DNA of 64,000 nt from Octopus vulgaris (taxonomy: Eukaryota). The notes beneath the pieces were generated by a model. That model saw only the letters and a program-made list of their open reading frames with translations, was not told the DNA's origin and ran no database searches. Positions 27,567 to 63,945 of this stretch are shown in pieces; within the stretch, counting starts at the first letter, position 1, and every line of letters starts with the position of its first letter. The position numbers and the translations under genes are program-made. The stretch spans positions 7,626,001-7,690,000 of the forward strand of contig OX597829.1 in assembly GCA_951406725.2 (NCBI GenBank), in the 5' to 3' direction.

Positions 27567-27692
27567 TGAGACAGGTGGCGCCACCGGTTTGACTTCTCTG
27601 CTATCAGCAGAGCCTTCAGTCGAAGCTTCTAGCTCATTCTCTTCAGCAGCCTTCTTTTCATTATCAGATTGTGAACTGAAGATACGTTCCAA
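27567..27692 (-). CDS. Internal coding exon (126 nt, phase 0-0) of an unidentified gene: LERIFSSQSDNEKKAAEENELEASTEGSADSREVKPVAPPVS
   Basis: cctgttttcag|TTGGAA...GTCTCA|gtatgt. Only frame 0 is open (the other two have stops), GC is raised over the flanks, and the sequence is not repeat-like. Confidence 0.85.
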
Positions 27693-28086
27693 CTGAAAAC
27701 AGGTACGAAGAATGACTATCAATATTGAAGCACTTAGACATCTCCAGCTGACAAAGTACTGATGATGACAATGATGATGATGATGTCAATAATAATAATA
27801 ATAATAATAATAAATTGCAAATGTGGGAATTGATGTTGAAACATTTCTATCACACACACACTAAGTATATGTATGTAAGCTTGAGTGTGAGAGTATATGT
27901 GTATATATGAATATATACATATATAGGTACACACACACACGCTTTTATATAAAACAGATTTTAAAATATTTGCTATCATCTGTAAACTGAATTCCAAATA
28001 TGGTATTAAAAGAAATCACATATAAATAACAATAAAACACTCAGGTATGGTTGAGATATAATAACAGGACAAATATCAAATGAAAT

Positions 28087-28170
28087 ATAGTAGTAGTAGT
28101 AGTTGTAGCAATAGTAATAATAATAGTAGTAGTAATAATAATAATAGTAGTAGTAGTAATAATGATGATG

Positions 28171-28201
<31 letters not shown>

Positions 28202-28221
28202 TGATGATGATGATGATGATG
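28087..28221. repeat. Compound (TAG)/(AAT)/(GAT) trinucleotide microsatellite
   Basis: Directly visible. Confidence 0.95.
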
Positions 28222-29019
28222 TAAACAAGTAACATAAAATTTGCATCAGACTGTCTGAAAGTATAAATTCACCAACTGAACACCCACACATAGTAAGAAA
28301 TTATAAAATCCAATTGATGTTATTCCTTCTTTTTCATTTATTCTTTAATTTTTTCTTTTTTTTTTTTTGTAATAAACCATCAATGAATTGTGGAACAAAA
28401 CAAAGACTTTAAAAAATCAATAAATAAAGGAATATTTATAAAATTAATCTTCAAATTGAAAGCAACAATGATGCCCGTCGATTAATGTTAGCCAAAAGCT
28501 ATTCTATATTTAACTTGGTGCATTTATTAAAGGCAATATTGTGATATTGCGTGTAATGACGATGATGATAATGATATTGATGATGGTAAAGTTGAATGAA
28601 GAAAGTTGCTGAAATTCCACATGAGTGTCTATATAGCAAGCTTAGAAGATAGTGTTCTTTCTGAAAGAAATACTATCAAGAACATCAAGATCAACTTCTA
28701 ACTATAAATCTACTTCAGAACAATGTTAGTTACAAACTGGTTTCAGTAATGTAGAGAAAAGAAACCTTTAATAATGATTAAATAATGGCGATGATGGGGA
28801 CAATCATTTCTTTTATTTGTGACCAGTGCAAGGGATGAGCAGGGGACAATAAAAAAGATACATAGCGTAAAAAAAAATAAAAAAGAACATTTACTCAGAA
28901 TGGAATGATAAGAAAATAATACAAGTATACATGGTATACGATATTAACAACCAAAAATAAAATAAAGTATGCGTTTGAATATATGTGAATTAAGAAAGAA
29001 ATGGATGAAAAGTGAAGAA

Positions 29020-29136
29020 AACATTGGCAGAATTTGAACTCAACACAAAGTCACAGATGAAATGCTGCCAAGCATTTTGTCCAGAGTACTAAGGAGTGTG
29101 CCAAGTTGCTGCCTAAATAATGATGATGATGATAAA

Positions 29137-29169
<33 letters not shown>

Positions 29170-29377
29170 TTCTACTATAGGAACAAGGCCTGAAATTTAG
29201 TGCGAGGGCACTAGTCGATTACATCGACCCCCCAGTACTCAACAGGTACTTAATTTATCAACCCTGAAAAGATGAAAGGCAATTCTTGACAGAATTTAAA
29301 CTCAGAACATAGCAATAGGCAAATTACCAATAAGCATTTCGTCCAGCATGTTAGCAATTTTACCAGCACACTGCCTT
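29020..29377 (-). mobile_element. Two tandem SINE fragments (family of 40490-40702) separated by (AAT)n
   Basis: The motif gcagaatttgaactca / gacagaatttaaactcagaac occurs twice. Confidence 0.75.
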
Positions 29378-29420
<43 letters not shown>

Positions 29421-29432
29421 GTAATAATAATA

Positions 29433-29480
<48 letters not shown>

Positions 29481-29524
29481 TAATAATAATAATAATAACA
29501 ATTATAATAATAATAATAATAATG

Positions 29525-29555
<31 letters not shown>

Positions 29556-29694
29556 TAATGATAATAATAATAATGATAATAATAATAATAATAATATTAA
29601 TAATAATAATAATAATAACAACAACAATAATAACAATAATAATAATAATAATAATTTCAATAATAATAAAAATAACAATAATAATAATAATTTC

Positions 29695-29726
<32 letters not shown>

Positions 29727-29734
29727 TAATAATG

Positions 29735-29768
<34 letters not shown>

Positions 29769-30016
29769 TAATAATAATAATAATGATGATAATAATAATA
29801 ATAATAATAATAATATTAAGAATGATAATAATAACAATAATAATAACAACAATAATAATAATAATGATGATAATAACAATAATAATAATAATAATATTAA
29901 TAATGATAATAATAATAATAATAATAATAATGATAATAATAATAGTAATAATAATAATGATAATAATAATAATAATAGTAATAGTAATAATAATAATAAT
30001 AATAATATTAATAATG

Positions 30017-30085
<69 letters not shown>
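29378..30085. repeat. ~700-bp imperfect (AAT)n tract
   Basis: AAT with interspersed GAT, AAC, ATT and AGT variants; source of the poly-I and poly-L ORFs. Confidence 0.98.
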
Positions 30086-32590
30086 GCCCCCAAAACAAAT
30101 GGCAATATCACTGAGCTAAAAGACATAATATATGCAGCAGCCACTGCAACCACAAAAGAAGCTGGATGCTCCCTCAAACCCATCTTAACAAGAATACCAC
30201 CACCTAAACAAATCCTGTCGATAAATAACATCCCAAAAAATAGAAAAAAAATAGAAAAGATCTGTCGATTCTTAACAAAATTAGTAGACAATCACAACTA
30301 CTAAGTAACAAGAAGAAAATACTGTACAAATACAACATTACACAAAAAGATTTACCTGAGGTATAAGAAAAGCTAAAGATATCCTTGCCAAAGCACAAAG
30401 GATCTGCCGGTATGAGAAACGCCAACTTTTCTTTGAACAGAACAAGCAATTCAACTCCAACCCCCAAAAGTTCTACCAATAATGTGGCAAAAATAAAACA
30501 GAGATCACTGCAGTACCAACAGCAGAAGTGGAAGAATTTTGGAAAGAAATATGGTCGGCGAAGGAACAACCTCAGAAAAGGATTATTAACATAACAAACT
30601 CAGCACCTGAGCAACTTTGGACTCCAATAACAACTGAAGAGGTCACCCAGGCACTGCAAAGACTAAGCAACTGGAAGGCACCTGGGCATGACAAGATCCC
30701 CAACTTCTGGTTAAAATATCTATCAGGAATACACAAAAAACTGGCTGAAAACTTTAACAACATACTAGCAGAGCCAGAGACAATGCCTGAATAGTCACGA
30801 AAGGGAAAACTATCTTAATTCCCAAATCCAATGAGACAGCAAAACCAGAAAACTACAGACCTATAACCTTTCTCCCTACAATGTACAAAGCCCTTACTGT
30901 TGTAATATCGCAAATAATGAACAAGCACCTGGACGAAAACAACCTGTTTCCAGAAGAGCAGAAAGGATGCTGCAAAGGCTCATATGGCTGTAAAGATCAA
31001 CTAATGATCAATAAAGCCATAACTGAAGACAGCCGCAGAAAGAAGAAAGGCCTCAGTAAGGCCTGGATCGACTACCGAAAGGCGTTTGATAGCATTCCCC
31101 ACACATGGATCCTCGAAACACTAGCCATTAACAAAGTAGCACCAACAATCATAAAATTCACAGAGCACTCTATGAATAAATGGCAAACAGTCCTACACCT
31201 CCAAACAAAAGAGGGACTTGTGAAAACCAAAGCCATCCCCATTAGAAGAGGAATATTCCAGGGAGACACACTATCTCCACTCCTTTTCTGCTTGGCACTG
31301 TCACCTCTATCTGATATGCTAAATAGAACTGGATGCGGATACAAATGTTATGGCAAAACAATCCGCCACCTTATATATATGGATGACCTAAAACTATACG
31401 CTGCAAATGACAAACAGCTGGAAACACTATTAAAGACAGTTCATGGATTCACCAAAGAAATAGATATGAAATTTGGATTAGAAAAATGCACCAAAGTAAC
31501 CCTGAAAAGAGGAAATCTAGTTAAGAGTAGCAACATCACAATAGATAAAGCCAATGAAATAAAAGAATTAGACCAAAGCCAAATTTACAAATACTTAGGA
31601 ATCCATCAACTAGATAAGACACAACACACAAATGATGGCGAAAATAAAAAAGGAATATTATAGACGAGTTAGATCAATACTAAAAACAGAGCTCAATGCT
31701 AAAAACAAGATAATAGTTATTAACACTTTAGCCATCTCAGTTGTAAGTCACAGCTACAATATCCTTAACTGGACACCAAATGAACTGACCAAAATAGACA
31801 GGAAAATAAAAGAAATAATGACAGGATCTAGGATGCTCCACCAAAATTCTGACATAAATACTATGTATAGAAGGTGGTAGAGGCCTTATACAGCTAGAAA
31901 ACTATTATAAAATAACCGCCATAGGACTACAGAAGTACTTGATTCAGAAAGAAGGAAAACTAATACAAATAGCCACAAAACACGAGCAAAACAAAAAAAT
32001 ATTTTCAGTATTTAAGGAAGCTGACAAATACAAACAAAAAAATCATACTACCTAACAAATATGAAGAAGAAACAACAAAAGCTATAAGACAATTGAAAAC
32101 CAAACTAAAACTAAAACAGCAATGAACCATGATAAGGATCATGAAGTAAAGAATGGTTTCTAATTGATGTATCAATACCAACAGATGACGTTTCTCTTAA
32201 AGAAATGGAGAAACTCTCAAAATACAAAGACCTGGAGATAAAAGGTAACTCGAATGTGGAATCTAAAAACAGAAACAATCTCTATCATAGTAGGTGCATT
32301 AGGCATGATAAAAAAATATTCAGACAAATACATAATAAAAACACCAGGACTTACAAACACATATAACATACAGAAAATTGCACTATTGGGCACTGCACAC
32401 ATCCTATGCAGAACACTTTCCATACAATAACCATCAGAGCATCACAACAAATCACAGCACATACCCAAGGCACACAGAGCTGCGCTCGGCAGTGAAGTGA
32501 AAGCACGCTATAAAAATAAAACTACTGAATAATGATAATAATAATAATGATAATAATAATAATAATAATAATGATAATAATAATAATAAT
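30086..32590 (+). mobile_element. R4/Dong-type non-LTR retrotransposon (RT + restriction-like endonuclease); 5'-truncated, frameshifted, internally deleted
   Basis: NWKAPGHDKIPNFWLK, ENYRPIT, EEQKGC, AWIDYRKAFDSIPH, RGIFQGDTLSPLLF, HLIYMDDLKLYA, FGLEKC, YKYLG; C-terminal LIDVSIP..D, EKLSKYKDL, IIVGALG, LLGTAHIL; (AAT)n at both ends. Confidence 0.93.
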
Positions 32591-32989
32591 TGTTTCTAAT
32601 TTTAGGACTAAGTCAGCAGTTTTGAGGCAAGGAGCCTAGTCTATCAGACCAAATTTAGTCTAAGGCTGGTACCTTATTTCCCTAGGAGGGGATGAAAGAC
32701 AAAATTGATTTTGACAGAATATGAACTCAGACTGTGAAGAACTGGAATAAATACTTAAAGGCAATTTGTGTGAAGCTCTAATAATTCTGGCAAAGCATCA
32801 GCATAATTGCTTTTTAACCTAAATATCAGGAATATATTTCAATTTTTTATGTTTTTATATTTGAGTATAATACTACTTCATAATTTAAAAAGAAAAATTT
32901 GCATTAAATTTCTTGTATTACGTGAGTAAGCACAATGATGATGATGATGATGATGATAATAATAATTTGACTTTGACGAAAATCTTTAC

Positions 32990-34740
32990 ATGGTTAAATG
33001 AGAAATCATTGAAATGAATGTGTAATACAAAGCAATGTATGAAAGTGGATAGTTGAATGGTGAATAACTTTGATTATGGAAGATCCAATGAAAGGAAATG
33101 AGTAGAAAATTATCAACCAATCACCCAACTCAACCTGTTATTAACAGGCATTTTTACTGAGAAAACCACACAAGCAGGGCAAATTACTACTTATTGAATA
33201 GAAGGATTGCAGGAAACACATAAATGCACCAAACACTGTCTGATCTGGGACAAAAGAATTGCAAGAGATGACAATAATTAGTGAATAACAAAAAACAAAA
33301 AAAAAAGAAGAAAAGAAAAGAAAAGAAGAAAGAAAAAAGGCCTGCGAGAGATGTTTCCCTATTCTCATATTGTGGAGCTAGTGTGTTTGGCAGGGCTGTA
33401 AACCTCATCAGCACCCTCAATGGAAAGGTGACATACTGGAAAATAAATTAAATAGTGAAAAGGAAATCACTGCTGTTGCTGTAAAGAAGACATATCTTTC
33501 AGTGTGACTCTTTCTCTCCTTTGTCATTTACTACAATTCTAATATCTATTTCAATGACAACATCTGCTAGAAACAAGTGAGACCTGTACGCTCCATCTTC
33601 AATTCGTTTTTACTTGATGGACGAATTAAAGATATTCATGATGCCAAACAAGGAGATTCATTCACTGTTAAAACCATAAAGGAGTGATGCAGCGATGTGA
33701 AATGTAGTTAAGTAAATCAAAATGTGTGACTTTAGTCATAAAAAGAAGGAAGATAAACTCACTGTAATGAAACAATTTCATTTGTTAAGGGAATGGATTT
33801 CAGAACCCAATGACAATTGACACAAGTGCCTAGCCGTAGTGGAACTTAGTGATATCATGAACAAAGAGATGCAGGAAAAAAATGGTAACTATATTTGAAA
33901 AGACTAAAGCTTATTGATGTTCATTCTTTTTCATCTAGATCTTTACATTCTGAGTTCATATTCTGCTGAGGTTGACTTTGTCTTTCATCCCTTCAGGGTT
34001 GATAAAATAAATATCAGTTGAGCACTGAAGCAGTGTGTGTGGATATGGGGGGGGGGGGGTCAATGTAACTGACGTACCCCACCTCCACCCTAAAATTGCT
34101 GGCCTTGTGTCAAAATTTGAAACCATTAAAGTACTGGAATAGTGAATTAGATGAAAGATAAAGTGGATGCATGAGAGAGAAAAATGAGTAGAACTTTATG
34201 TAAGGAATACTTTGCCTGAAGGCAAACACCAGTCATTTATACTTAAAATGGAGGAATTGGAGATAAGGTCAATAAACCATTACCAAGCAATAATTGCTAA
34301 AGTATCAAAACATGCTGTAATGGAACTGTGACATAATGGTGTTGACCTTCAAGAGAAGAGTCTTTGGACAAAGTAGGGTAATATGTGAAGGAAAGGAAGC
34401 ACTAGAAGAAATGCCGTTATATCAATAGTTCTACAGAATTTTTATGGGAGTGGTTCTAGAGAAAAGATTTAAAGAAAGAAATGGAGAAAATGTTTGTAGC
34501 TACAGAAAATGAACCCCTAAATATTGCTTCAGTGATGAAACATATTTATGGCATTGCTTCAACATCATTGTCTATATAATGATTAAAAAATATCTTACAT
34601 ATGGTAACAGATTGTAAAATAGGAGCTTGGAAAGAGTAAAAGCAAGGATAAAGTTTGTCTTAATTTGCAGGGATCTCTATGAAGAGGAAAATGAGTTCAG
34701 ACACTACTCCTTTGAAGAGAAGTACCAGAAAAGGCCTTAG
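32990..34740 (+). mobile_element. Older, heavily decayed R4/Dong-type LINE with a SINE inserted at ~33940-34125
   Basis: Residual VENYQPIT (~33100), IFQCDSFSPL (~33495) and LMDELKIF (~33615) motifs in the same order as in 30086-32590. Confidence 0.65.
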
Positions 34741-37675
34741 ATCAGTATTTCTCAATATCATTGTTGCATACCCCACACCGATTTAAAACACACACAAAAA
34801 AAATAATAATAACCTATAACCTCACTCTCCTATATCCAACCACAAATTAAAACTTTATTCTATGTTTTATATTGAAACACAGCTCAAATGTTATAAATCT
34901 ATTAAAATTATATAGCATTTGGGGGAAATGGTTATAATGATGTGATGACAACAAAGAAGATGACAATGAGGTTGATGAGGATGACTGTAATACTGATTAG
35001 TGGTGGATGAGTAAGACTATTGATTGAGGCATAAACAGTGATTCAGTCATTGCTATTTAGTCCCAGATCAATTTTTATCCAGCATATCTGTCATCAAAAG
35101 CAATCAGGCTGAGACCATTTCCTTTTCTCAGACATAATGCATCTAGGACAACATTCAGCCCTTGTGATTCATTTCCCAACCATTTTTTCCTGATTACTCT
35201 ATCCATTTAAGAAAAAAAAAAAAATTCTAAAAAAATTTTTGACTTCTTGCAAATAGCAACCAAATCTCCTTCAATTCATATTCAGCTGTCTGAGACACTG
35301 ATATAAAAAAAAAAAGAAAAGAAAAAAATGATGATATGGTCATGACTAGAGTGTCTTTGAGCCTAGATCTATTTCATGAAAACTAATTTAGAACTTATAA
35401 TAGCAACAAGCAGACAAAAAAACATATCCATTCCTATTTAATTTTTGTTTTGCTTATTCTTTATTTTAATTATATACGTATAGGACATTTAAAAAGAAAA
35501 AAACAAAAAAATATACATATGTACATACATGCAAACATCTATCCATCCACACATGAATACACACATACATATGTATGTACATCTATACATGCATACATAT
35601 ATGCATGCACGTACACACACACACACACGTACATACGTTTGGTCAACAAAACAGTTTATGACAAGATATTAATATTCTTCATTCTAAAAGAGTCAGAGCA
35701 AGTAAGATATTTTAGTTTAAAAGCATTTAATCAAGATTTGATATTTCTTCCAGCCTGGTTCCAAAGACATTAAGATAATCTGTGTTATAGAGTGCTATCC
35801 AGCATATTCTTCTGATTATAAATTACTTTCTATTGCCATAATTTTGGTAAAATCTCCATCAGTTAAATTGTACTTATATGAAAATAATTTGATTAAAGCA
35901 ATTTTGGGAATTAAAATAAACTATACAAATATCAATAATCTATAATTACTGGCAGGAAATAATGATAATAATGATGGTGGTGGTGATGCTGCTGATGTCG
36001 ATGATGTTATGATAATGACAATGACGATGATGGTGATCACAATAACAATAATATAGAAGTTAGAAAAATTCATGTATTATTCTGTTAAGGAAATGCTCAC
36101 CAATAAAGGATAAGCTTTGAAATTAAATTAAAATAATATAGATATTTTTCTTGTCATTTAAATTAATCCTGACAAATATTTGTTTGCTGCCAAGAAGAAG
36201 AATAAAAATGTAAAAGAATGATATTTGATATGAGTACCTGTGTGTGTTTGTGATACAGTACTGAGTGTGTATATAACAGAAAATATTAATAAAGAAATAA
36301 CAGAATGATGTTCACTTTTTGGTGTAATCAATGATGATGATGATGATACTAATACTAATAATAATTCATTTACATTGATTACATACACTGCAACAAAGGT
36401 AAAATTATTTATTAAAAAACAGTTAAAACCAAAACTGAAAATATCTGACTAAATAATTGGGCATAAGAAACATTAGACATGGTGTGCAAGAGAGAAGACT
36501 GCACCAGTTTGATCATGTGATGCAGACGAATGAGAACAGCTGTATAAAGAAGAGCTGATTGCTAAACACAAATGGAAAGAGGGTTCTGTAAAGAAGACTC
36601 AACTCAAAATGTTGAGCTTCTTTGAGATGATAAAGGACTGAAATGAATAATGAAAAAGCTGTGTTTGAGAAAACCTGTCCCTCTCAGTGAAAATGAGGTC
36701 CAGTCATGTCTTCCACCTTTTAATACCTATTCCTCCACCAATCGGCTAATTGTGCTAGTAGTACACACTCAGATGTTGCAAATAATACCAATTATCCCCA
36801 CCTCCCTTACACAGTTTATATTATATCCCTGCTGCTTTCCCTTATCAACTTCTCTTCCCTGACCAGTTCTTATTTTCTTTCCTTTACATCTCCAATCTAA
36901 TATTCACAGTATTCCCCCTCAAGCCACATCTGTAATGATCGGGCACTCTTTCATCATAAACACACTAACCTAGCCAGCTAAATTTTTCTGTTCCCCTATC
37001 ATTATTTCCTCTTTCATATTTTCACCATGTAGCATGACCTCACACCTTTTTCTCTTCTTCCAGATACAGTAGCCATTCAGTCAACTCTTTAACAAGACAC
37101 CTGCTTTTGTCCCTCTATTACATCCATCTATATTATACTCCGTTCAGTTGAGGGGCCTTGACTAGCAAGAACTCAGTGATGTTGCAAAAAAAAAAAAAAT
37201 TTTTTTAAAAAGCACCCAGAACATTCTGTGAAGTGGTTGACATTAGGAAGAGCATTCATGAGTTCAAGCCATGGCAAAGCAGATATACTGGAGCTTGGCA
37301 CAGCCTTCTAGCTCCTCAAACCAGCATGGAAAAAGGGATGATAAATGACAGTGATGTTAATAATGATATCTATAAGTATGCCTTGATGCATTTAATGTTG
37401 TTTAGGTGAACAAATCATTTGTCGTTATTATCTTTTTTGTATTAATTATTTAATATGGTTGACAAAATATTATTTTCCTTGAATTTTGTTTGTTTCAGCC
37501 AGATGGCTATGGTCAATGTTGAGGTTACTGCCTTTCAACTCATCACCTAAAATTAAATAATATTTACTAAGAAACAGAGTGCATGGATTCACTTAATAAA
37601 CTAGCCTCTCCCCTTGAATTTCAAGGCTGATGACTAATCAAAAAAACTATACTTTTTTTTTTCATGTTATTATTA

Positions 37676-39122
37676 TCAATATCTATAAATCTGAAATGCG
37701 AAAAGTTTGTTTGTCTGGTTTTGGCATTGGAACGTGTTAAAGGGCACTAGATCCCGTCGGATTGACTCCAAAATTTACAGGGACATGTAAAATGAGGTGA
37801 GGATATTAGTGGGATAGGTTAGAAATCCCTATCTTTAAAGGTGTCGTTACTAGGGCAAAAAACGCACACTTAGATAAGTCTTCTCTCATTCTTTTATCTG
37901 CCTGTCTTCCTCAATGTCTCTCTCTTTCCTCCCTTCCTTTCACATTCTCTCTATAACGTTGTTTGACGGCTACTATCTTTCACCCGCCGCCTTCACTCTT
38001 TCTATTATTATCGCCACCACGACTACACAATCATGAGAACAAATATTATGAATCAGATATTTATTGGGTTAATTTATATATGTGTATGTGTGTGTGTTCT
38101 ATATATAAATATGTATATACAATGTATATATACAAAGTGTATATATCTGTATTTATATATATATAATTAGTATACATTTGTATATATAATGCGTACACAC
38201 ACACACACACATATATATAATGCGTATACATGTACATATATATATTTAATGTGTGTGTATATATATATATATAATGTGTGCATTATGTGGCCAGTTGAGC
38301 TGAAAATATGCACACCTATGTTAAAAGTGCTGATGAGTTTGCATGGCAACTATTTTTTTCCTCAAATGAAAGGCGTGACCTCTAGGCCAAAATTCCTCAT
38401 CTTATAAAATGTGACCCGAGTGGACCCAAATGAAATCGGGTTATATTAACCAAAATGTTAAAAGGGGTCTAAATGGGGCTGGAAGGAGATTAAAATTTAC
38501 AGGAGCGGGTGTTTAGGAATTCTCTGTTACATCAAGGTAAACAATTTGCGCCAGCCTTTAAATCTTCAATGTGTTGCCGTCCATGATGAAGAAGTTTTGA
38601 ATGCTTGCATTGGTGAGTCTACTGTCGTGGGAAAGAATCACTTCAAAACTTAGTGTTTAGGAATTTTCTTTTACATCAAGTTCAAAATTTTATGTCACCC
38701 GTTAAACTGCCACTACGTTGCTGTCCGTCATTAAGAAATGCCAGCCATGGTGACTCTACTATCCTCAGATGCTATCCCTTCAAACTTTGGTTTCCAATAT
38801 TTTATTATTTTTATTCAAGTTCGCAAGTTCGTCTGTCCTTTTTAAATGTTATGAAGCAGACCTTTCCGTTGTCACTGCCTGATATTTATGAGTGAACTTT
38901 CAAAATATATTCTTTCTCAACTTACTCAAGATCTTTTGTTGTTTATAAATGGGAGAGAGATAGATAAAGATAGAGAGTAAGAGAAAGCGAGGGAGAGTCC
39001 GAGAGAAAGGAAGAGTAAGAGAGTGGGAAAGTGAGAGAGAAACAAAGGAGAATGTGGTGATAAAAAACAGAAAGTAACAACCACACTCTTACCCGCGCGT
39101 AGAGCGGGTCACCTTAAGCTAG
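37676..39122 (+). mobile_element. Non-autonomous Helitron
   Basis: Host A|TC 5' end (TCAATATCTATAAAT), 3' hairpin ACCCGC-gcgtaga-GCGGGT (39091-39109), then CTAG|T, with no TSD. The internal decayed fragment MSPVKLPLR..SLRN...QVRLSF resembles a PIF1-like Helitron helicase. Confidence 0.8.
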
Positions 39123-39134
39123 TTATTATTATAA

Positions 39135-39520
39135 AGGCAGTAAGCTGGTAGAATTGTTAGCATGGCATATAAAATGCTTAGAAGCATTTTGTGTCTTTAT
39201 GTTCTGAGTTCAAACTCTACCAAAGTTGAGTTTACCTCTCATTCTTTCAGACACAATAAAATAAGTACCAATCAAATGCTGGGGTGAAAGTAATCAACTA
39301 ATTCCCTCCTACAAACTTTCAGGACTTAGCTGGCAAAATTGTTAGCACAGCATTTTGACTGATTTTACGTTCTGAGTTCAAATTCCACCAAAGTCAACTT
39401 TGCCTTTCATCCTTCCGTGGTTGAGAAAATAATTACTAATTGAATATTGGGGTCGATGTAATCAACTTATTCCCTCATCTCAAACTTGCTGGCCTGTGCC
39501 AAAAATCTGTAACCATTCTT
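39135..39520 (+). mobile_element. Two tandem SINEs (family of 40490-40702)
   Basis: agctgg.a.aattgttagca...gttctgagttcaaa...ttt.cct.tcat.ctt occurs twice. Confidence 0.8.
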
Positions 39521-39710
39521 CTTATTATTATTTTACTTTTCAGAGCTCTCGATCTTACTTGTTCTGGTTGAATCTGTGTGACTGGACAGCAACCTGTTGT
39601 CAAAGGTCTTACAGGGTATCTTCCTGAAAATTGTAAGTATTGGTACTTGGTTGTTAACATGGAAGACACTCAACACCCAAGCACCAATCTCAATTATTAC
39701 TAGTATTATT
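39521..39710 (-). mobile_element. R4/Dong-type 3' fragment with (TAA)n tail
   Basis: Minus strand shows VIIEIGA...TIFRKI-like terminal residues, a short UTR, then aaaataataataa. Confidence 0.5.
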
Positions 39711-50246: not shown

Positions 50247-50266
50247 CTTCCTGGAGATATTACCAA

Positions 50267-50950: not shown

Positions 50951-51240
50951 AGAGTAAGGTAATGTTTCACATGGCCAGACTCACTCTTCAGGAAACAATG
51001 GAAATGAACAACAGCACCTGTATGACAGAAACGTGCAATCACAGCCATAAAAACAGGCATAACTGTACATGTGTGCGTGATCCCCACACACACACACAAT
51101 TATACAAGATGAACTTGATGACCCTGCCAGTGCTACTGATATCTTTTGCTAAACTAAGTTATGGGTACGTAAACAAACCAACACAGGTTGTCAAGCAGTG
51201 GGGAGGGGACAAACACAAAAAAATGCACACACATACAAAC

Positions 51241-51945: not shown

Positions 51946-52514
51946 GCACAAACATATATGTATATATATTATATATATGTATGTGTGTGTGTGTGTGTGT
52001 GTGGGAGGTGTGTATATATATATATATATATTCAGCTATGACTGTTCATGGCTTGGTATGACTTGATAAGCTTTTTCCATAATGCTTGTTTCTTTGCTTG
52101 AGTTTGCCATTTATTATGATCAATTCCTTTCCCTTTCATATTCCTTTTTGCAGCATCTTTGAATCTCAGACTAGGTCTTGCATGGTTTCTTTTTCCCTTG
52201 CATAGTTGAGAGTAACGGATTTATCTAGGGAGTCTGTTGTTGTCCATCCTGTGTGTGTGACCCTACCAATGTAAATTTCTATCTATGAAGATTTCCATCA
52301 TAGGAGGCAGACAGCCACACCATAGGATCTTTTCATTGCTGATCTTGTCAAATAGAGTAACATTCATGATTTGTCACAACTGTCTCATCATACATGTACG
52401 TAGCTTGTCAACTTGAGCTTTATAGACTGTTCAAGTACCAGCTCCTTATAGCAGGGAAGAAAGCATTATAACCTGGTACACTTTAGATTTGACACGTATG
52501 GAAACGTGTGTATA

Positions 52515-53360
52515 TCATCACCATCATTGTTTAACGTCCACTTTCTATGCTGGCATGGGTTGGACGGTTCGACCGGGTTCTGGGAAGCCAGGAGGCTGCA
52601 CCAGGCTCCAGTCTGAACAGGCAAAGTTCTACAGCTGGATGCCCTTCTTAACCAAGAGTATAGTGGGTGCTTATTACATGCCACCGGCATGGGAGCCAGG
52701 CAGGAGACGCTGGCATCGACCAGGCTTGAATGGTGCTTTTTGCTTACCACTGACATAGGAACCAATCAAGCAGCACTGGCTCTGACCACACTCATATGAT
52801 GCTTTTCACATGCCACCGGCACAAAAGCCAGTCCGGTGGCTTTGGTATCAATCACACTTGAATGAGGCTTCTTACATGCCACCAGCACAGGTGCCAGTCA
52901 GGAGGTACTGGCATCGGCCATGCCAACAATTTCACTCAACTCAACACGTCTTCTCAAGCACAACATATTGCCCACACTTGACTCTCAGCCTTTGTTATGA
53001 CCAACATTTTTAAAAATTCAATTCTCCAAACATGCTCAGCTAGCCAGATCTTCTCCATAGTTGGGTTCTCTCCAGAATTGCACATCTCCAACAGGCATGA
53101 TCCTTTGTCATCTCCCTCGTGAGATACAACATTTTCAGATCAGTCTTCACAACTCTAAAACTTTCTTGGTTGTCCTCTCTCACAGATTCCATTCACTTTG
53201 GTTGTAAAATGTTTCTTTACAAAACTCTCATTGTCCATAAGTGTCATATACCAATACAACTGAATGCTTTTCTTCTGTTTGTTACATGTGGTTGTCTTTT
53301 TTTTTTTATCAAGTTTTTCAGTAATACTCTACCACTAATATGTTGTGCACACTAACATTA
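52515..53360 (-). mobile_element. RTE-type 3' region: UTR with four 66-bp units, then a decayed ORF end
   Basis: Same terminal motif as 51630; CCAC anchors at 52681, 52747, 52813 and 52879; 53040-53360 resembles the reverse complement of 41830-42120. Confidence 0.7.
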
Positions 53361-53708
53361 CAGATACACAAACACACACACTGAACACTGTTTCTATACT
53401 GATAATGAATGAATTTTTATCATGCTTGCCAGCTATTTGTGACACCAGAAATTTGTAAAGTACTCATTCTGTATTTCAGCAGAAGCTGAATCCGTCCAAG
53501 CATGCAGTTGCCAATGGATACTTGCTGTTGATGACACTCAAAGAAGCTGAAATCTGGGTTTAGAAACTCCACTGCTGTTGCAGCTGGTTGCTTTCCACCA
53601 GCTCCTCATATGCTTCTACTCTTTTTTAGCACTATACATTTATACAAGATGCTTTCCCAAACCCTTGTTAAATAACATATACGGAATGCTATATATATAT
53701 ATATATAT

Positions 53709-53859
53709 GCATTAGGAAGGGCATCCAGCCATAGAAACATTGCCAGATGAAACTGGGCCTGGTGCAGCCTTCTGGCTTCCCAGACCCCAGTTGAACCATC
53801 CAACCCATGCTAGCATGGAAAGCGGACGCTAAACGATGATGATGATGATGATGATGATG
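53709..53859 (+). mobile_element. (GAT)n-tailed retroelement 3' end
   Basis: Close inverted copy of 51630-51777. Confidence 0.85.
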
Positions 53860-53979
53860 CATCACAAAAGTGACAAAGGGCACTAATTAAGCACCAATAT
53901 TGTTAGAAATAAGAGTCAAAACAACTCATATTCACAGAATACTGGTGCTGATTTAGTACCTTTTGTCACTTTAGTGATG
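53860..53979. mobile_element. 120-bp hairpin MITE
   Basis: CATCACAAAAGTGACAAAGGGCACTAATTAAGCACCAATATT versus AATACTGGTGCTGATTTAGTACCTTTTGTCACTTTAGTGATG (~42-bp imperfect inverted repeat). Confidence 0.7.
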
Positions 53980-55883
53980 TATACATTTCTGCCTTTCGGT
54001 TGTGAAATTGTGAATTAGCCACCCACACTATATGTAACTTAGAATTCAAGTTTAAATTTGAATTTAAACTTTGCTTGTTGGGTATGTCTCCAGTAATATG
54101 CTGACAAAGCACTTTCACTGCCCATGACTACCTGGCACCAACCACAGTAATTGCACAATCCTCACTGGATCTATGTTAGGAATTCCTCACTGCATGTTGT
54201 TTTTACTATATATTTGTATATATGTATGTTGGCTTTTTATCAATTTCTATCTAGAAAATCCCAACTTTGGTTTGCCTAAGATCATAGTGGAAAACACTTG
54301 CTGTAGGTGCTTGGAAGTTAGACTGAGCCAGACGTAAGTGCAAATATATGACACACCAATACATATTAAGTGTAAATATGTGTATATATATATACACACA
54401 CGCATACACAGTAATTAAAGAAATATGAAAATGCCATCCAACTGGCAGCCATGTAGTTCGCCAGATTTCTTAGATACATATATAGAAATTTAGACCAAAA
54501 ATACATCTAAGAAAATATCATTCTATTTCTATTATTTAGTAATGTCGTAGAAATACCAGTATAAAAACTAAACTACAATGATTATACTTATTCTACAAGC
54601 AGTGTATCAAGAAACTTGACAATCGAGGCCCAGCATCTTTTAGGATTCTTACTTCCTTTTGTAGCTAACTCAACTCAAACTGTACAATGAAAGCAGTTCT
54701 ATCTACAGCTGCTTTAGGTTTCCACCTTCCCCTCTTCATGCATACTGGGGATACAAGGGCAGCCCATCTACAAAACTGACTACTACACAATAGAGGGTAT
54801 ACTTAAGTTCTTGCCAAAGATAAAAATACAAACATACAGACATATGTATGAGTGTGTGTGTGTGTAGGCATGTATGAATAGATACATACATAATTATTTC
54901 AGCATGTGGGCAGCATGTAAGAACATCAGTAAATCCAGATATATAACACACTGTATCTGACACTGGGCTCTTTCCTGATTCTATGCTAACACAATTACCA
55001 GGTCAAAATATTATACATACTAACATGTACGTATGTGTGTGTGTATTATACACACATATACTTATGTACAGGCAATGAGCTTCCACATGTTTTGTATCTC
55101 CCACAATACACTTAGGATTGGTCAACAAGAGAATAAAATTGAGGGCACTTTCTTAAGGTGCCATGCAGTGGATTGGAACCTTTCACCCACATGAGTAAGC
55201 CACTAGGGTAATAAAAAAAAAAACAACACAAAACAGCATGCTGATTTTATAACTGCTGCTTCTTTCAGATTAGCAATCTTTTCAGTGAATGGCACTGAGT
55301 GAAACCAACAGTAATAATATTAGCACACAGAAAATCCAGTTATAGCAAGCACATAGCTGATAAAAAGTACACATTCTCTACCAACAATCTAATTAGAGAT
55401 TATGTGTGACATATGACAAGAACAACAAAATATATTTTATTCATCATTGTTATCACTATGATTATTATTATTATTATTATTAATATTATTATTATTATTA
55501 TTATTATTACTATTGTTCATGTGATTATTCTATTAATATTATACCTGCACTCAAATTACATCCAAGCATCCATCACAAATAGATGCAGATTCTTTTTTAA
55601 TCCTCTATTTTTATTTATATATTTTGAACATTTTCTTTCAAACACTCATGCATTGAAGTCAACATGAGTAACCACCACCACCATCATCATCATCATTATT
55701 ATTATTACTACTACTAATTTCTTTCTTTTATTAGTATTTTTGTTTTAAAGAGTTGTAACTTCAAAGAGTGAAAAGATAAAGAATTAGAAGATATTAAAAT
55801 GAAATATTTAAATTAATATCAACTCTAATCATACTTCCTCTACCCAGCAACCACAAACATACACACAAAAACAAGACAACAAC

Positions 55884-55918
<35 letters not shown>

Positions 55919-55967
55919 TAATAATAATAATGATAATAATGATAATGATGATGATAATAATAATAAA

Positions 55968-56185
55968 TGGTTTAAAATTTTGGTGTATGTGCTGCAATTT
56001 TTTTGTTGGGGAAGGGGTTAGTTCATTACCCCGATCCCAGTGTTCAACTGGTAGGTATTTTACTGACCCTGAAAGGATGAAATGCAAAGTCAACTTCAGT
56101 AGAATTTGAACTCAGAACATAAGTCAAAAGAAATGCTGCTAAGCATTTTGTCCGATGTGCTAATGATTCTGCCAGCTCACAACTT
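55968..56185 (-). mobile_element. SINE (family of 40490-40702) between (AAT)n tracts
   Basis: gaccctgaaaggatgaaatgcaaagtcaac...gaatttgaactcagaac...ctgccagctcac. Confidence 0.85.
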
Positions 56186-56196
56186 CAATAATAATG

Positions 56197-56232
<36 letters not shown>

Positions 56233-56956
56233 GTGACAATGAATGTGGACATTGACAATAGTGATAATGATGGTGATGATGATAATGCATGAGAGCAGAG
56301 AGAGAAAAAGTATTTTCACATGACAATGGATGAAACAGCTACCATATCCACTAGACCTAAAACAATGTTAGAGATATCTAAGAAAAAATAAATAAATAAA
56401 GAGACCTGAAAAGTAAAATCACACACAAATGTAAAGATGAGCCCCTCCACCATCTCCACCATCACACAAAAAAACTCCCAGAAGGTAATATTTTTTACAG
56501 CTACTGCCTAGCACACATTACATGCTTTCAACAGTAGCAGAAAGTTCTTTTTTTTTTTGATTTTTGATTTCTTTCAGGCTATGCATACTCAGAAATAAAT
56601 AGATTCACAGTGGAAAAAGGGTGAGTTTTGGGAGAGAGGGAGAGACAAAGGAAGGGGAGGAACCAAGGTGAATGTCACGGCAGCAACACCAAAAAGAATT
56701 TTATTTTATGGGGTTTGGTTTTTTTAAAAAAATATACATATATATATTTTTTAAATCTCTTCTTTTTTAACAGGAAGTATTAAAAACACAGGAATGGTAC
56801 CACTGGCAACAGAGATAATTTTCTTCAATATTAAGCAATAATGCACATTTCACAACTACTACTACTATACATTGTCTTCTGTATCAGATGTTTCAAGTGT
56901 GCAGGAAGAAATGGATGAACAGCACTAAAGATGTATGTGTGTGTAAGGTAGATGGT

Positions 56957-57034
<78 letters not shown>

Positions 57035-57100
57035 GGGAGTATAGCTCCAAACTTACAGGGAAAAATTCGATTTAGTATTAAATCAAATTTCACAGTATAA

Positions 57101-57232
57101 ATATATAAAATATGAATTAGAGATAAAACCACTATTTATATTTATATTATTTGTTATTTATGTATTGGTTTATGTCTATCACCGTTTGAGTTGCATAACA
57201 GTGGTTTTATCTCTAATTCATATTTTATATAT
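57101..57232. repeat. 33-bp perfect inverted repeat (probable Penelope-like inverted terminus)
   Basis: ATATATAAAATATGAATTAGAGATAAAACCACT (57101-57133) and its reverse complement (57200-57232), set in (TA)n. Confidence 0.8.
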
Positions 57233-57276
57233 ATATATGTGTATATAAAATATATATATATATATATATATATATA

Positions 57277-57454
57277 CTTTACTTAAAGCAGCAGAAAATT
57301 CAACAAAACCTGTTACTCTGAGTTAACGGGAATGTGAAACTCAGAGTAACAGGTTTTGTTGAATTTTCTGCTGCTTTAAATAAAGCAAATTACTCTACCA
57401 CTGGTATTTGAGTACTCTTTTTTCCACCTTGTTTCACATTTATGTGTTTACTCC

Positions 57455-57457
<3 letters not shown>
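57277..57457. repeat. 42-bp perfect hairpin plus tail (probable Penelope-like inverted terminus)
   Basis: 57283-57324 and 57338-57379 are exact reverse complements with a 13-nt loop; flanked by (TA)n on both sides. Confidence 0.85.
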
Positions 57458-57498
<41 letters not shown>

Positions 57499-57504
57499 TA
57501 TATA

Positions 57505-57870
57505 TAATGTATATATGTATGTATGTTATTCAGTTTTATTTCAAGATTTCTTGTCAACAGAAAAAGAACTGGTTTCTAACCTAGATCCAAGACTCCTTCA
57601 CTGGAATTTCAACATCAACAACAGGGTATTTTTGTTTGTATGTATGTATATATGCAGATTTGTATGTCTTGCTTTATGTATGTATTCTCATGCATATACT
57701 TGCATAACTAGTTATGCTCATATATATTTAAATGATACACTTCTGGAAAGTTTTACAGATTTTTACAGTTCCAGTGATAGATTGGATCTGTAGTCTTTGA
57801 ATTAGCTTTCTCCTTTCTGGTTTTGAGAAGCCTAATTTCCCAAGATTGGTATTTAGGCAGTGTGTTACAT
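57505..57870 (-). mobile_element. 3' end of a non-LTR retrotransposon (probably RLE-type)
   Basis: YVTHCLNTNLGKLGFSKPERRKLIQRLQIQSITGTVKICKTF resembles RLE-element C-termini; UTR with (TACA)n. Confidence 0.55.
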
Positions 57871-58841
57871 ACATACTTATGTATATTTGTATGTGTGTGT
57901 GTGTATACACACAAACACAGTTTTATTTCATGTTTGTACAACCAAGTCACCTTTGTTACATCATGTGGCTATGATGTAAGAATACATGTGAATCCATTTA
58001 TATAACACCCTGGACACAGCATTTTCACAATTGTAAACTAACATGATTACCAGATCACAATACTTTTCTCATTCACACACAAGATCTAGGCACCTTTAAA
58101 CAGCAAACAAATTTTGCCCCATTAAAATTTGAGACCATTCACTTATAAAGTCCTTAAAAAGTAATATAGAAAGAATGGTTTAAACTTTAAGAACGAAATG
58201 GTAATTTTAATATAAATTACATACCTATTAATTAATAAAATAACTGACTCATCTTTTGCTTGAGATAGATATGTGACATAGCTCTTATGTTTATAAGTCA
58301 CACCTTATACTTAAATATTTCCCACCTCCAATATGCATATGTGGTGGCAGAGAGAATGTAAAATTCACATTATTCAAGGTCACATCTACAGAAATTCATC
58401 AATTTTGGATGAATGACATCGGTTCATTTCTTAGATTGTGTTTAAACAGAAACCATTACTGTGTCATGGCAGAGTCACTGTCATTTCTTTGAAACTTTGC
58501 ATACTGTTTCATTTACTTTTACCTTATTTCCTAACTTCATTGGTATCAATTGTATACCTACAACAAATTTTGTAACAGTGGAATCTAAAGTATGAGTAAA
58601 CATGTCGTAAATGTACGATGAATGATTTTGAAACTCAATAAAGTGCATTATTCTCTTACAAAATATAAGTGAACATAGTGAAATAGGTATGGATTTAGTG
58701 TTATCGTTTCCTTTGTCGTTAGTGATAACTAAAACTTAATACTGTAGTTGAAATAGAAGCTGTTTTACCAGATAGTCGTTGTGTTGTAAAGGAAACTAGT
58801 GTCGATAAGTTATGCTGATACAGAAGACAATAAAATCAAAT

Positions 58842-58847
58842 CTAAAC
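58842..58847 (-). CDS. Candidate start of an alternative last exon (V-stop) after exon 63865-63945
   Basis: ttctttttcatattattgtttttgcag|GTT TAG, followed by ~900 nt free of TEs and microsatellites (possible 3' UTR). Confidence 0.4.
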   Translation of the reverse strand, partial: V

Positions 58848-59045
58848 CTGCAAAAACAATAATATGAAAAAGAAAAAAAAGGTAAAGAACAAACAAATAC
58901 AGTGTATGCTCAAAAGCAATCATTAAAATCAAGCTGTGTGACCAATTTTGCATAATACACCTATCATTTGCACAACAATAAATTTTGCAATTTTCATTCT
59001 GTACTTCAAAGTAACAACAATAATAATCCATACAGCATACAATAA

Positions 59046-59069
59046 TCATAGCATAAGTATAAACTCAGC
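59046..59069 (-). CDS. Candidate alternative terminal or stop-containing exon (AEFILML*)
   Basis: catttttcttctctctctccag|GCT GAG TTT ATA CTT ATG CTA TGA; possible donor gtatgc after 59041. Confidence 0.3.
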   Translation of the reverse strand, partial: AEFILML

Positions 59070-59212
59070 CTGGAGAGAGAGAAGAAAAATGATAAAAATT
59101 CTACCAAGATATGTTTTAAGATTATATAAATTATAATAACAAATGTAAAAACATGATATTTTTTCAGATAGGATCAACTCTAAGTTATGTTATTACATCA
59201 TAATGATACTCA

Positions 59213-59575
59213 TTTACTTGTTTCAGTCATTTGACTGTGGCCATGCTGGAGCACCGCCTTTACTTGAGCAAATCTCAGGACTTATTCTTTGTAAGTTTAG
59301 TACTTATTCTATCGGTCTCTTTTGCTGAACCGCTAAGTTACAGGGATGTAAACACACCAGCATCGGTTGTCAAATACAAACATGCAATCTTATACACGAA
59401 CACACATACACACACGACGGGCTTCTTTCAGTTTCCGTCAACTAAATCCACTCACAAGGATTTGGTAAACCCGAGGCTATAGTAGAAGACACTTGCCCAA
59501 GGTGGCACGCAGTGGGACTGAACCCAGAACCATGTGGTTGGTAAGCAAGCTACTTACCACACAGCCACTCCTGCG
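59213..59575 (-). mobile_element. tRNA-derived SINE (CORE-like CCTTGGGCAAGTG segment)
   Basis: Minus strand starts CGCAGGAGTGGCTGTGTGGTAAG...GGTTCAGTCCC; multiple homologs in the window. Confidence 0.88.
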
Positions 59576-59607
59576 ATAAATAAATAAAACTACAGAAAAC
59601 AACAACT

Positions 59608-59820
59608 GATTTCTTTACTACCCACAAGGGGCTAAACATAGAGGTGACAAACAAGGACAGACAAAGGAATTAAGTCGATTACATTGACCCCAGTGTGTAA
59701 CTGGTACTTAATTTATCAACCCCGAAAGGATGTAAGGCAAAGTCGACCTCGGCGGAATTTGAACTCAGAACGTAGCGGCAAACCTCTAAGCATTTCGCCT
59801 GACATGCTAATGTTTCTGCC
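59608..59820 (-). mobile_element. SINE (family of 40490-40702) with ~19-bp near-perfect TSD
   Basis: actacagaaaacaacaact (59589-59607) / actacagaaaaataacaact (59821-59840). Confidence 0.88.
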
Positions 59821-61819
59821 ACTACAGAAAAATAACAACTAATGTGTTGTACTGCATATTTTCCTCCCTAATTTACTAAGTTGTCTTAGGTTGGTAGTTT
59901 TTGCCAATTCAGCTGTCTTCATAACTTTATTACAGTTCAATGCTAAGGATGCGCAATAAAAATAATGTAAAAATCTGTCCTCATCTAATTTTGCCAGACA
60001 ATATGAGTGTACCACCAAAACTATTGATCACTTCTTAATTCTGTCAAGTGAGTAGAGTAAGCTATAGTGAAGAGGTTTAATAAGACTGAAATATATTGGT
60101 TGTTTTCAACAGCTGGCTTCAAAAGTAAGAACTACCATTTGCATGATCTTTATTTTCCAAACTCTTCATGTGACTGATATTTTTGGAATTATCTTCCTTA
60201 CCAGAGGTTTTTGAATTTTGCTCTCCACAAGGAGATTCACTATGCTGATTGCATAATCAGTTTTCAGCGAGACCCCAGTTAGTTTTTAATTGTCAGAGCA
60301 AATCAGTTGAGAAGAATTTATTTACTTCTCGTAACTTACATTTATTCCTTAACTTAGTTTAATTATTCGTCTGTAGCCATGCTGAAGACCACTCGGAATG
60401 GCATTAGTCAATCATATTGACCCACGGAATTACTTTTCAGTCTATTCCTTACCACATGGAGTGTGCATTTCAATGTTTGCCTCCTCTTTAAAATATGGGG
60501 CTCTGTGTTTATATTGTGCAAAGTTCAATAAGTACTTGGCCTAAAGATATGTGCTGATTCGAAAATGACTGAATGAAACCCATCAAGGTTCTTCATGATT
60601 TCCTTCTCATTTATTTTCTCATGGACCAACATCCTGGTTTCTAAATATATTTGACAACATGCACTGAACCAGAGAAGTTGCATTGAAATACATGGCATGT
60701 TATTGTATCACTGCCAAATTATTGTATCACTAGAGCATGAAACTATTAGCAGTTCTTTTGTAAATAGTAAATATATACACACACACACATGCGCGCGCAC
60801 ACACACACACACGTGCGCACACACACATACATTTATTTATTTATTTATTTTAAAGAAGGTTATTGTGTAAGACCAGAACAATACAAGATGGTATAAAGTA
60901 AACAAAAAGTCCTGAAGAAAGGGTCTTCGCCCCAAAATACAGGAACACAAAGTAAAACTACTATTTAGTTCTGTTTTCTTTTCCTTTTGTAATTTACTTT
61001 GTACCTTCTTGCATTGTTCCAGCCTTTCACAACAACCTTTTCTAAAGTCATATCTCACAACGCTTGAGTAAAACCACCTCATGTTGTGTGTGTGTGTTTG
61101 TGTGTGCGTGTGTGTATCTGAAGGGCTTCTGCTAGGTGTAACTAATTTCAATTAAAAGTACTAACCAGACAAAACATGAAATTAAATGGCCCCAAATTAA
61201 ATTCACCAGCATAATCACGCCTGCACCTATAAACTTGCAACATTTCATTTCTTTCACACTTGTGAAAAACAAAATGAATTTTTTTTAAAAATGTGTTTGC
61301 AGTAGAAAATATATTTTGCAGTCATGCAGTTCTAAAAGTATTTAACAGGCAGAATTGTCTGCAAAATGGCATAATTGAATTCATATGGTTTCCAACACAG
61401 GCACAAGAGCAAACATTTTCTGGGGTGGTTGGAGTTACAAATATTTATCATAACCACATTACCCGAACAATAAAACTCCAGAACAAAACAGTCAACCATA
61501 GTAGGATTTGAAACTGCTAATAATAGTAATTATAAATGGAGATGGAGGAAAATAATTTCTACCATAAGCATAAGGCCTCAAATTTGAAGAAAGGGTAAAG
61601 TCAAGTGAATCAAAAAAAATTTTATGCCAACACACACACACGCTTAAAAGTTTTATTAACTTTGTAAATTCAACAAAATGCAATCTGCTGAACCCAATAG
61701 AATATCTTCACACTTAATACTAACCTTTCAGTTAGTATTAAGAGTGAAAGTATTTTATTTTAAATGGCCTGGTCCCTGAAGCACAGATACCCCTACGATT
61801 TATGGCTCTCTCTCTCCCA

Positions 61820-62166
61820 TATATTCATATATACACAATTATCTGCATAATATATATATATATATATAGACATACATACATACATATATACATACACAGA
61901 TACACAGACATATATACATACACACAGATATATATAGAATATACAAATATATATATATATATATATACATACAAATTTATACACACATATTTATCATACA
62001 AATAAATACACATAAACACACATCTACACACACACGTATGCGTATATATTCTCTTACTAATTTTAGCTATGAGACTGAGAGTATGCTGGGCCACCATCTT
62101 CAAATGATTTCATATAATATATAGACGTATGTATATTGCATGTGTATGTGTGTATATGTATGTGCG

Positions 62167-62200
<34 letters not shown>

Positions 62201-62390
62201 TATATATATACACATATATATATATATATATATAACACACACACATATATATATATACACACACATATATATACACACACACACACACACACATACACAC
62301 ACACACATATATGATTGATTGATTGATTCTAGTTTCAGCTCATATATATATAAACACACACATACATATGCATACATACACACACTTTGC
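61820..62390. repeat. Microsatellite field (TA/CA/TACA)
   Basis: Directly visible. Confidence 0.9.
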
Positions 62391-62536
62391 ATGTATCACA
62401 TAGCTTTGCATGTATGTCATGACTTTTAATTACAATTCATTATATTATTGTAATTAAACATAAATTCAATGCTTTACGCAAAAGTTGTATCACTATTATT
62501 TATTTATATTTACACAGTATCTATCTATCTATCTAT

Positions 62537-62594
<58 letters not shown>

Positions 62595-62596
62595 GT

Positions 62597-62790
62597 GGAG
62601 GCGCAATGGCCCAGTGGTTAGGGCAGCGGACTCGCGGTCGCAGGATCGCGGTTTCGATTCCCAGACCGGGCATTGTGATCCCTGCTGTACTCTTTCACCA
62701 CTCTTTCTTCTGTTGGCCTGCTCGCTTAGCCAGCGGGGTGGCGTCATTCGAAGGCTAAAACAATGCAAACGCATTGTGACAATGTTAATT
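62597..62790 (+). mobile_element. tRNA-derived SINE, CpG-rich (young) head
   Basis: GGAGGCGCAATGGCCCAGTGGTTAGGGCAGCGGACTCGCGGTCGCAGGATCGCGGTTTCGATTCCCAGACC with A and B boxes; homologs at 17690-18045 and 4290-4580. Confidence 0.85.
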
Positions 62791-63127
62791 TTATGGAGAG
62801 AATGACGTAATGTACAGCACAAGCATTGATCACTATGAATAAATCACCTGTGCAGGTCATTCACCAAAACCAAACAGCCACAAATTGTCTCCAGTGGAAC
62901 ATTCCATTGTATATGTATAAATGCATTATATATATATATATACTTGAGTGAGTGGAGAAGTGTATGGATCAAAACTAGTAACTGTTGTCGCTTGCATGAC
63001 TTCTCTCAACCAATCGCAAGCCACCTTATGGTAATACTTTCTCTCATTCAAATTCAAAATGGCTGGAGATTAGCATCACACTTGAAACTTGGAGTACCAA
63101 TGAATTTGAATCAAACTGTTTTCATCC

Positions 63128-63175
<48 letters not shown>

Positions 63176-63276
63176 TACAAAATTAGAAAATGGAGAAAAC
63201 ATACTTAAATCAATCAAACATCAACCATCAGATGATACCCAATCAATACTTTATTACACCATTACATAACAGTAAA

Positions 63277-63328
<52 letters not shown>

Positions 63329-63514
63329 CAGAGCAACTTTTGAGGCTAGTCTGATAAAGTGCTACTCTAACATACTCATTTGAAAATATTAATACTACAT
63401 AACTTTTAACATGGAATTATTTATATGAAATGGTGTTAAAAATGGAGTGGTGTTGAAACAATTGTAATTGACAATAAATAGTAATAAAGATGTGCTAAAT
63501 CTTTCCCGCATGTA

Positions 63515-63545
<31 letters not shown>

Positions 63546-63591
63546 CATCATCCTCATTGCTTAATGTCCATTTTCCATGCTAGCATGGGTT

Positions 63592-63632
<41 letters not shown>

Positions 63633-63864
63633 TACACATATATATATACATATATATATATGTATATTTAAAAATAAATAATTAACGCCATTTCTAAATA
63701 CATTACTTTTCTTCTTCAATAAGGCTGAGTTTATTTTATCTTCCAAAGAGGCGGGGATGATAATCATAAGAAAACAAGAGAAAATTTAAAAGAAAAAAAA
63801 ATAACTAAAATCAAATCATTTCAAAACAAAACATAACCCCAAAAAAATAAAACACCTGACATAC

Positions 63865-63945
63865 ACTGAGCAGTAACTTTAGGGTCTTTTCTGGTCGTGG
63901 AATAAACTTTTGCTCAGAACGGGGCAAAGCGAAGAAAGATTCCAA
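63865..63945 (-). CDS. Internal coding exon (81 nt, phase 0-0) of an unidentified gene: LESFFALPRSEQKFIPRPEKTLKLLLS
   Basis: Long T-rich tract ...tattattgtaatttcag|TTGGAA...CTCAGT|gtatgt. Only frame 0 is open, and the boundaries are homologous to exon 27567-27692. Confidence 0.82.

Follow-up and report, generated by a model that had tools for sequence, protein, structure and literature searches.

The locus and the exon pair

The window, that is, the whole stretch of 64,000 nucleotides analysed in the present study, lies inside one octopus gene, which is annotated as 'calcium uptake protein 3, mitochondrial' and is called MICU2/3 here, and it carries two exons of this gene, A and B (Table 1). 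The coding exons of MICU2/3 span G000:C16:7587589-8059106, about 470 kb, and its introns reach at least 72 kb between mapped exons. A scan of the 64-kb window for long open reading frames gave no clue to the gene, and a search with the exon B peptide returned one protein, isoform X2 of the O. sinensis 'calcium uptake protein 3, mitochondrial', in which A and then B stand in series directly after EF-hand 1. On the window plus 400 kb of neighbouring genome, the EF-hand 1 exon was mapped 15,856 nt upstream of A, and the next constitutive exon at the distance from B given in Table 1. In a genome search, all nine matches fell at this locus; neither a further MICU2/3 locus nor a MICU1 locus was among these matches, a count that is a lower bound.

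Table 1. Coordinates of the gene, the two alternative exons and their splice sites in the window
Feature	Position in the window	Strand	Remarks
MICU2/3 gene	1..64000	-	covers the entire window; no coding exons other than A and B are annotated there
Exon A acceptor tttcag	63946..63951	-	preceded by a long pyrimidine tract; joined to the EF-hand 1 exon G000:C16:7705802-7705884
Exon A	63865..63945	-	81 nt, phase 0-0, 27 aa, net charge +2; alternative
Exon A donor GTATGT	63859..63864	-	contig junction to the constitutive exon G000:C16:7625285-7625379
Intron separating A from B	27693..63864	-	36,172 nt
Exon B acceptor tttcag	27693..27698	-	direct contig junction to the EF-hand 1 exon
Exon B	27567..27692	-	126 nt, phase 0-0, 42 aa, net charge -5; alternative
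Exon B donor GTATGT	27561..27566	-	same downstream constitutive exon as A, 28,187 nt further on

Among solved structures, the octopus protein matched human MICU3 best (385 bits, with 254-276 for MICU2 and 143-148 for MICU1), and in this match the start of the exons is aligned to the MICU3 residues that follow the EF-hand 1 loop. Both 12-residue EF-hand loops are canonical (D1, D3, D/N5, E12), Pfam EF-hand matches were obtained, and the model reached a target TM-score of 0.89 against 6AGI (four-hand fold). The N-terminus is basic, with a helix predicted at 42-59, and the C-terminal cysteine is aligned with C413 of human MICU2, the cysteine of the disulfide link to MICU1. An optional 9-residue N-terminal segment, encoded in the part of the gene upstream of the window, distinguishes isoform X1 of O. 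sinensis from X2 (P0003 and P0004). In a tree of 26 sequences, the octopus gene grouped with MICU2/3 and apart from MICU1 (support 100/100), and vertebrate MICU2 and MICU3 grouped together, apart from the protostomes including the octopus gene, with moderate support (84/95). The octopus gene is probably co-orthologous to vertebrate MICU2 and MICU3, and since it falls outside the vertebrate pair, MICU2/3 is the safer name.

The introns in the window also hold remnants of mobile elements. A 290-codon open stretch at 30791-31660 on the plus strand contains a reverse-transcriptase domain (Pfam RVT_1, E 3e-29); this retrotransposon remnant lies in the intron between A and B and adjoins a long (AAT)n tract. 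A second reverse-transcriptase fragment (RVT_1, E 3e-8) lies at 23632-24135 on the minus strand, in the intron downstream of exon B. Two more open stretches, at 46371-46811 (minus) and 43670-44170 (plus), which we take to resemble piggyBac-type and Tc1/mariner-type transposase fragments, gave no Pfam match supporting a transposase.

The coordinates of both exons proposed by the first-pass annotation were confirmed, together with their lengths (81 and 126 nt), tttcag acceptors, GTATGT donors, phase (0-0) and peptides. The proposed identity of 18 out of 21 nucleotides between the two acceptor junctions was also borne out and is above background: on both strands of the 64-kb window, the 21-mers of A and B are each other's sole match at four or fewer mismatches, and among the ten acceptors of the MICU2/3 gene the A/B match ranks first of 45 pairs (runner-up 14/21). 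In addition, the 12 matches over the 15 exonic positions are, besides the exon itself, unique among 487 TTTCAG sites in 464 kb. Six of the 18 matching bases belong to the acceptor consensus and the shared L-E-x-x-F accounts for most of the others; given L-E-S-F-F and L-E-R-I-F, the 12/15 exonic matches have P = 0.03, with codon usage taken from the MICU2/3 gene only. Beyond nucleotide 15, no similarity between A and B was found (shuffle P = 0.41), and their 300-nt flanks gave low-complexity matches only. A common end of the two exons had been noted as well, and this holds in part, as both end in Ser before a GTATGT donor, but the codons differ (AGT in A, TCA in B). We rejected this end as a sign of paralogy and regard it as coincidence, Ser being the last residue in one of 25 distinct mollusc versions of exon A.

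Conservation across molluscs and the origin of exon A

The tally for molluscs covered 98 proteins from 41 named species, and since these proteins are cluster representatives, absences from it are uninformative. By script, A and B together were found in 23 species, A alone in 17, B alone in 23 and neither in 9. Inspection corrected this count: Lottia has B (B alone, 24), two mussels scored as 'neither' have a mussel-specific segment, and six species with neither were left. Exon A was found in 34 of the 41 species, among cephalopods, gastropods and bivalves, and the A/B pair is thus conserved across these three classes. A search with exon A and its flanks returned octopod proteins only (3/3 candidates) and was too word-limited to bound the range of the exon. 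Further optional, lineage-specific segments occur in the slot after EF-hand 1 in limpet, Biomphalaria, mussels, chiton and nemertean (P0025, P0038, P0050, P0059, P0065, P0102, P0103 and P0104).

The two exons are conserved in different ways. Exon A of Argonauta is identical to that of octopus in 27 of 27 residues, compared with 86% for the whole protein. Across 25 distinct 27-residue versions of exon A (three of 28 were left out, two being chimeric models and one a 24-residue form), K13, F14, P16, R17 and L26 are invariant in all 25, at positions not used for selecting the sequences, and the mean net charge is +1.8. Invariant residues in an exon that stays skippable point to selection on the A form. 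In exon B, only the first six or seven residues are kept, and the rest is variable and predicted to be disordered. The start of B is common to ticks, insects, amphioxus and human MICU3; as arthropods and chordates share it, B is taken as the ancestral exon.

For exon A, we lean towards an ancient duplication, in which a copy of the acceptor and first codons of B probably gave rise to it, presumably at least 500 million years ago. The paralogy by tandem duplication proposed in the first-pass annotation is likely, but it rests on five codons and is unproven. A recent duplication was rejected, because both exons are present in bivalves and gastropods and their flanks share only low-complexity sequence.

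It is less probable, but still a serious alternative, that A was not copied from B and either entered the gene independently or, as an old exon of protostomes, is related to the upstream segment of insects, the LExxF start having converged to finish the same helix. The likeness of A and B is confined to 15 nt; along the exon bodies and flanks no homology was found after nucleotide 15 or residue 5, apart from low-complexity sequence in the flanks. Ticks, insects, crustaceans, nemertean and chiton have upstream segments of their own in the slot, and other slot segments were seen in flies, moths, ostracod, krill and spider, with exon borders inferred from the proteins only. Hydrophobic residues at positions 1, 4 and 5 begin 12 of 14 such lineage-specific segments, so part of the likeness between A and B is explained by a need of the slot for a start that completes the helix. 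The exact L-E-x-x-F appears to exceed that need, however: E2 and F5 occur together in A and in B but in none of these 14 segments. Beyond residue 5, one of 47 B segments resembles A at z > 2. Five insect segments resemble mollusc A weakly in this part (z 1.1-2.6), which would suit an old protostome exon, but the five are not independent and the likeness may be helix periodicity; the chelicerate and krill segments showed no resemblance to mollusc A beyond residue 5. Overall, the duplication of the start of B remains the origin that we favour.

Splicing of the two exons in octopus

The first-pass annotation had read A and B as alternative modules joined to one upstream exon beyond position 64000. 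Spliced contigs show that this is so, the upstream exon being the EF-hand 1 exon, 15.9 kb upstream of A. The splicing evidence consists of contigs, which can drop rarer splice forms, from six of 24 listed sequencing runs, found with exon B as bait. None of the listed runs is recorded as RNA; the spliced contigs show that five of the six examined are RNA, and the sixth, run X21, is uninformative on expression. Junctions from the EF-hand 1 exon through B to the next constitutive exon were present in all four runs checked for B, and the corresponding junctions through A in three of the four runs checked for A, the fourth (X21) being unspliced. A and B therefore share the upstream donor and the downstream acceptor, as well as the phase, and A-only and B-only spliced forms are both present in octopus. 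A change at 63883 was considered as RNA editing and rejected, since it is synonymous and present in the unspliced run too.

Runs X1 and X7 contain both forms, in contigs of 180 nt and 135 nt beginning 24 nt within the EF-hand 1 exon, the pattern that an assembly graph with a branch after the six bases common to A and B should give. A B contig in run X9 and an A contig in run X15 have the same short form, which suggests a second path in these runs too. Contig depths, which are not expression measures, were 92.7 for A and 65.1 for B in run X1, and 7.2 for A and 12.7 for B in run X7. Forms with both exons or with neither come from annotation only in octopus: of the O. sinensis isoforms, X1 and X2 carry A and B, X3 carries B, X4 carries A and X5 carries neither, and the gene model of O. 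bimaculoides contains A and B in series.

We consider it unlikely that A and B are a strictly mutually exclusive pair made by tandem duplication, with the models that contain both as annotation artefacts or minor leakage. Such a pair would agree with the clean two-path pattern of runs X1 and X7 and with the contigs of the five spliced runs, in which no A-to-B junction was found. It would also suit the helix-completing LExxF at the start of both exons, which is needed only if each directly follows the EF-hand 1 exon. But proteins with A and B in series are known from 23 of the 41 mollusc species, from isoforms X1 and X2 of O. sinensis and from the O. bimaculoides model, and exon-free forms are annotated in O. 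sinensis and other molluscs, six species in all, so that a rule of never both and never neither does not hold. The bivalve-like protein P0043, assembled from short sequencing-run contigs, also has A and B in series, and double inclusion is thus more than a product of gene models, at least in that sequence. Furthermore, the exons are unequal in length and have unrelated bodies, and no mechanism of exclusion was found: the 36-kb intron and lengths divisible by three leave no steric or decay-based exclusion, and 600-nt flanks contain no pairing stem common to A and B. The motif TGCATG occurs twice within 500 nt downstream of B (0.29 expected) and not near A, counts too few to use. Hence, the strict exclusivity expected at first is contradicted, and of the predicted junction pattern the common upstream donor and the lack of an A-B contig stand, but forms with both exons are annotated. 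The use of the two exons in octopus appears to be biased to one exon at a time and not obligate.

The EF-hand 1 slot and its relation to known systems

We assign a probability of about 0.7 to the following reading: A and B are spliced alternatively, without a change of frame, between the EF-hand 1 exon and the constitutive exon that comes next, and each codes, by prediction, for the final turns of the EF-hand 1 exit helix and is likely to tune the calcium response. In the AlphaFold models, where the exons start at residue 216, the exit helix crosses the junction in both forms, at 210-221 in the A form and at 215-239 in the B form; the A form then has a second helix at 234-244, and residues 240-262 of the B form are a low-confidence stretch. 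Both models have low pLDDT values over the exons (57-68 for A and 39-74 for B). The A-form model was closest to the MICU3 structures 6AGI and 6AGJ. As predicted by these models, LExxF would complete the exit helix, after which A would add a short second helix and B an acidic disordered loop.

The slot corresponds to residues 246-275, approximately, of human MICU1, which contain R259, R261 and R263. These residues are reported to lie close to the D-ring of MCU when the channel is blocked and to be disordered when calcium is bound (PMC7442490, PMC7434445). The exit helix of EF-hand 1 in human MICU3 is described, in the available part of its report, as long without calcium and bent with calcium, with a consequence given there as unknown (PMC8353469), and micro-exons of MICU1 alter calcium affinity and uptake according to the accessible portion of another (PMC8909990). 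Since the slot matches both the pore-contacting loop of MICU1 and the calcium-bent helix of MICU3, the exchange of A and B likely tunes calcium gating. Replacement of the conserved basic module A by the acidic loop B could alter the calcium affinity of EF-hand 1, the coupling to MICU1 or a membrane contact, and any of these could change the threshold of the uniporter, an effect that the micro-exon of MICU1.1 has in mammals. MICU2 and MICU3 lack the region by which MICU1 contacts the channel (PMC7434445), so that the loop does not have to face the pore.

In Drosophila, MICU3-A and MICU3-C had similar effects and neither was a gatekeeper, and the available text does not give the site at which these isoforms differ (PMC6506686). 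It is quite improbable that the splicing, though real, matters little for function, with a loop after EF-hand 1 that tolerates insertions and isoforms that behave alike, for although loop length and sequence vary widely across 150 MICU representatives, the body of exon B is unconserved and the Drosophila isoforms acted alike in the text available (PMC6506686), the five residues of exon A named above are invariant in all 25 versions of an exon that can be skipped. A wider proposal is that protostomes, with one MICU2/3 gene, swap the end of the EF-hand 1 exit helix and so obtain the choice between gatekeeper and enhancer that vertebrates get from MICU2 and MICU3, molluscs using the conserved basic A and the ancestral B and arthropods their own exons in the same slot; we regard it as doubtful.

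Both exons are already in the gene annotation, and what is new here is an exon choice conserved across molluscs, paralleled in arthropods and placed in a functionally open part of a calcium sensor. In the literature covered, outside which most subscription papers fall, no published study of MICU2/3 splicing at the EF-hand 1 slot or of mollusc MICU isoforms was found, and supplementary splicing tables on cephalopod or mollusc transcriptomes could list the event. The nearest published item is a table row for zebrafish micu3b, a sex-biased mutually exclusive exon event whose position is not given in the available part of the source (PMC7349279). With A and B, molluscs have retained natural variants in which precisely the stretch of the calcium-dependent helix bend of MICU3 is exchanged, and these offer ready-made constructs for asking how the exit helix of EF-hand 1 determines the threshold of the uniporter.

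The octopus protein has the same fold as human MICU3 (EFHA2; PDB 6AGI, 6AGJ) and MICU2, with the same two canonical EF-hand loops and C-terminal cysteine, and the residues after EF-hand 1 in human MICU3 match the start of exon B. No alternative like exon A was found in the vertebrate sequences examined, in which the variation lies further along the loop; block differences of this kind were seen in the MICU3 sequences P0148, P0158 and P0132. Dscam1 and myosin heavy chain have mutually exclusive exons that arose by tandem duplication. Exons A and B resemble this type in their common phase, flanking exons and structural slot and in their probably homologous starts, but differ from it in their unequal lengths and unrelated bodies, in annotated double inclusion and double skipping, and in that no exclusion element was found. 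Arthropod MICU3 proteins (ticks, Drosophila, Ceratitis and Papilio) are like those of molluscs in having an optional segment upstream of the LEKIFS/MEKIFS segment, and in ticks all four combinations of the own upstream segment and the B-like segment are present; the arthropod upstream segments, with exon borders inferred from proteins only, lack an LExxF start and show at most a weak likeness to mollusc A. The mammalian micro-exons MICU1.1, 1.2 and 1.3 are, like A and B, in-frame optional exons of a MICU protein, used singly or together (PMC8909990), but they belong to another paralogue and insert 2-4 residues behind residue 181, well away from the EF-hands. In octopus, by comparison, the exchange involves 27-42 residues and affects the end of the EF-hand 1 exit helix itself.
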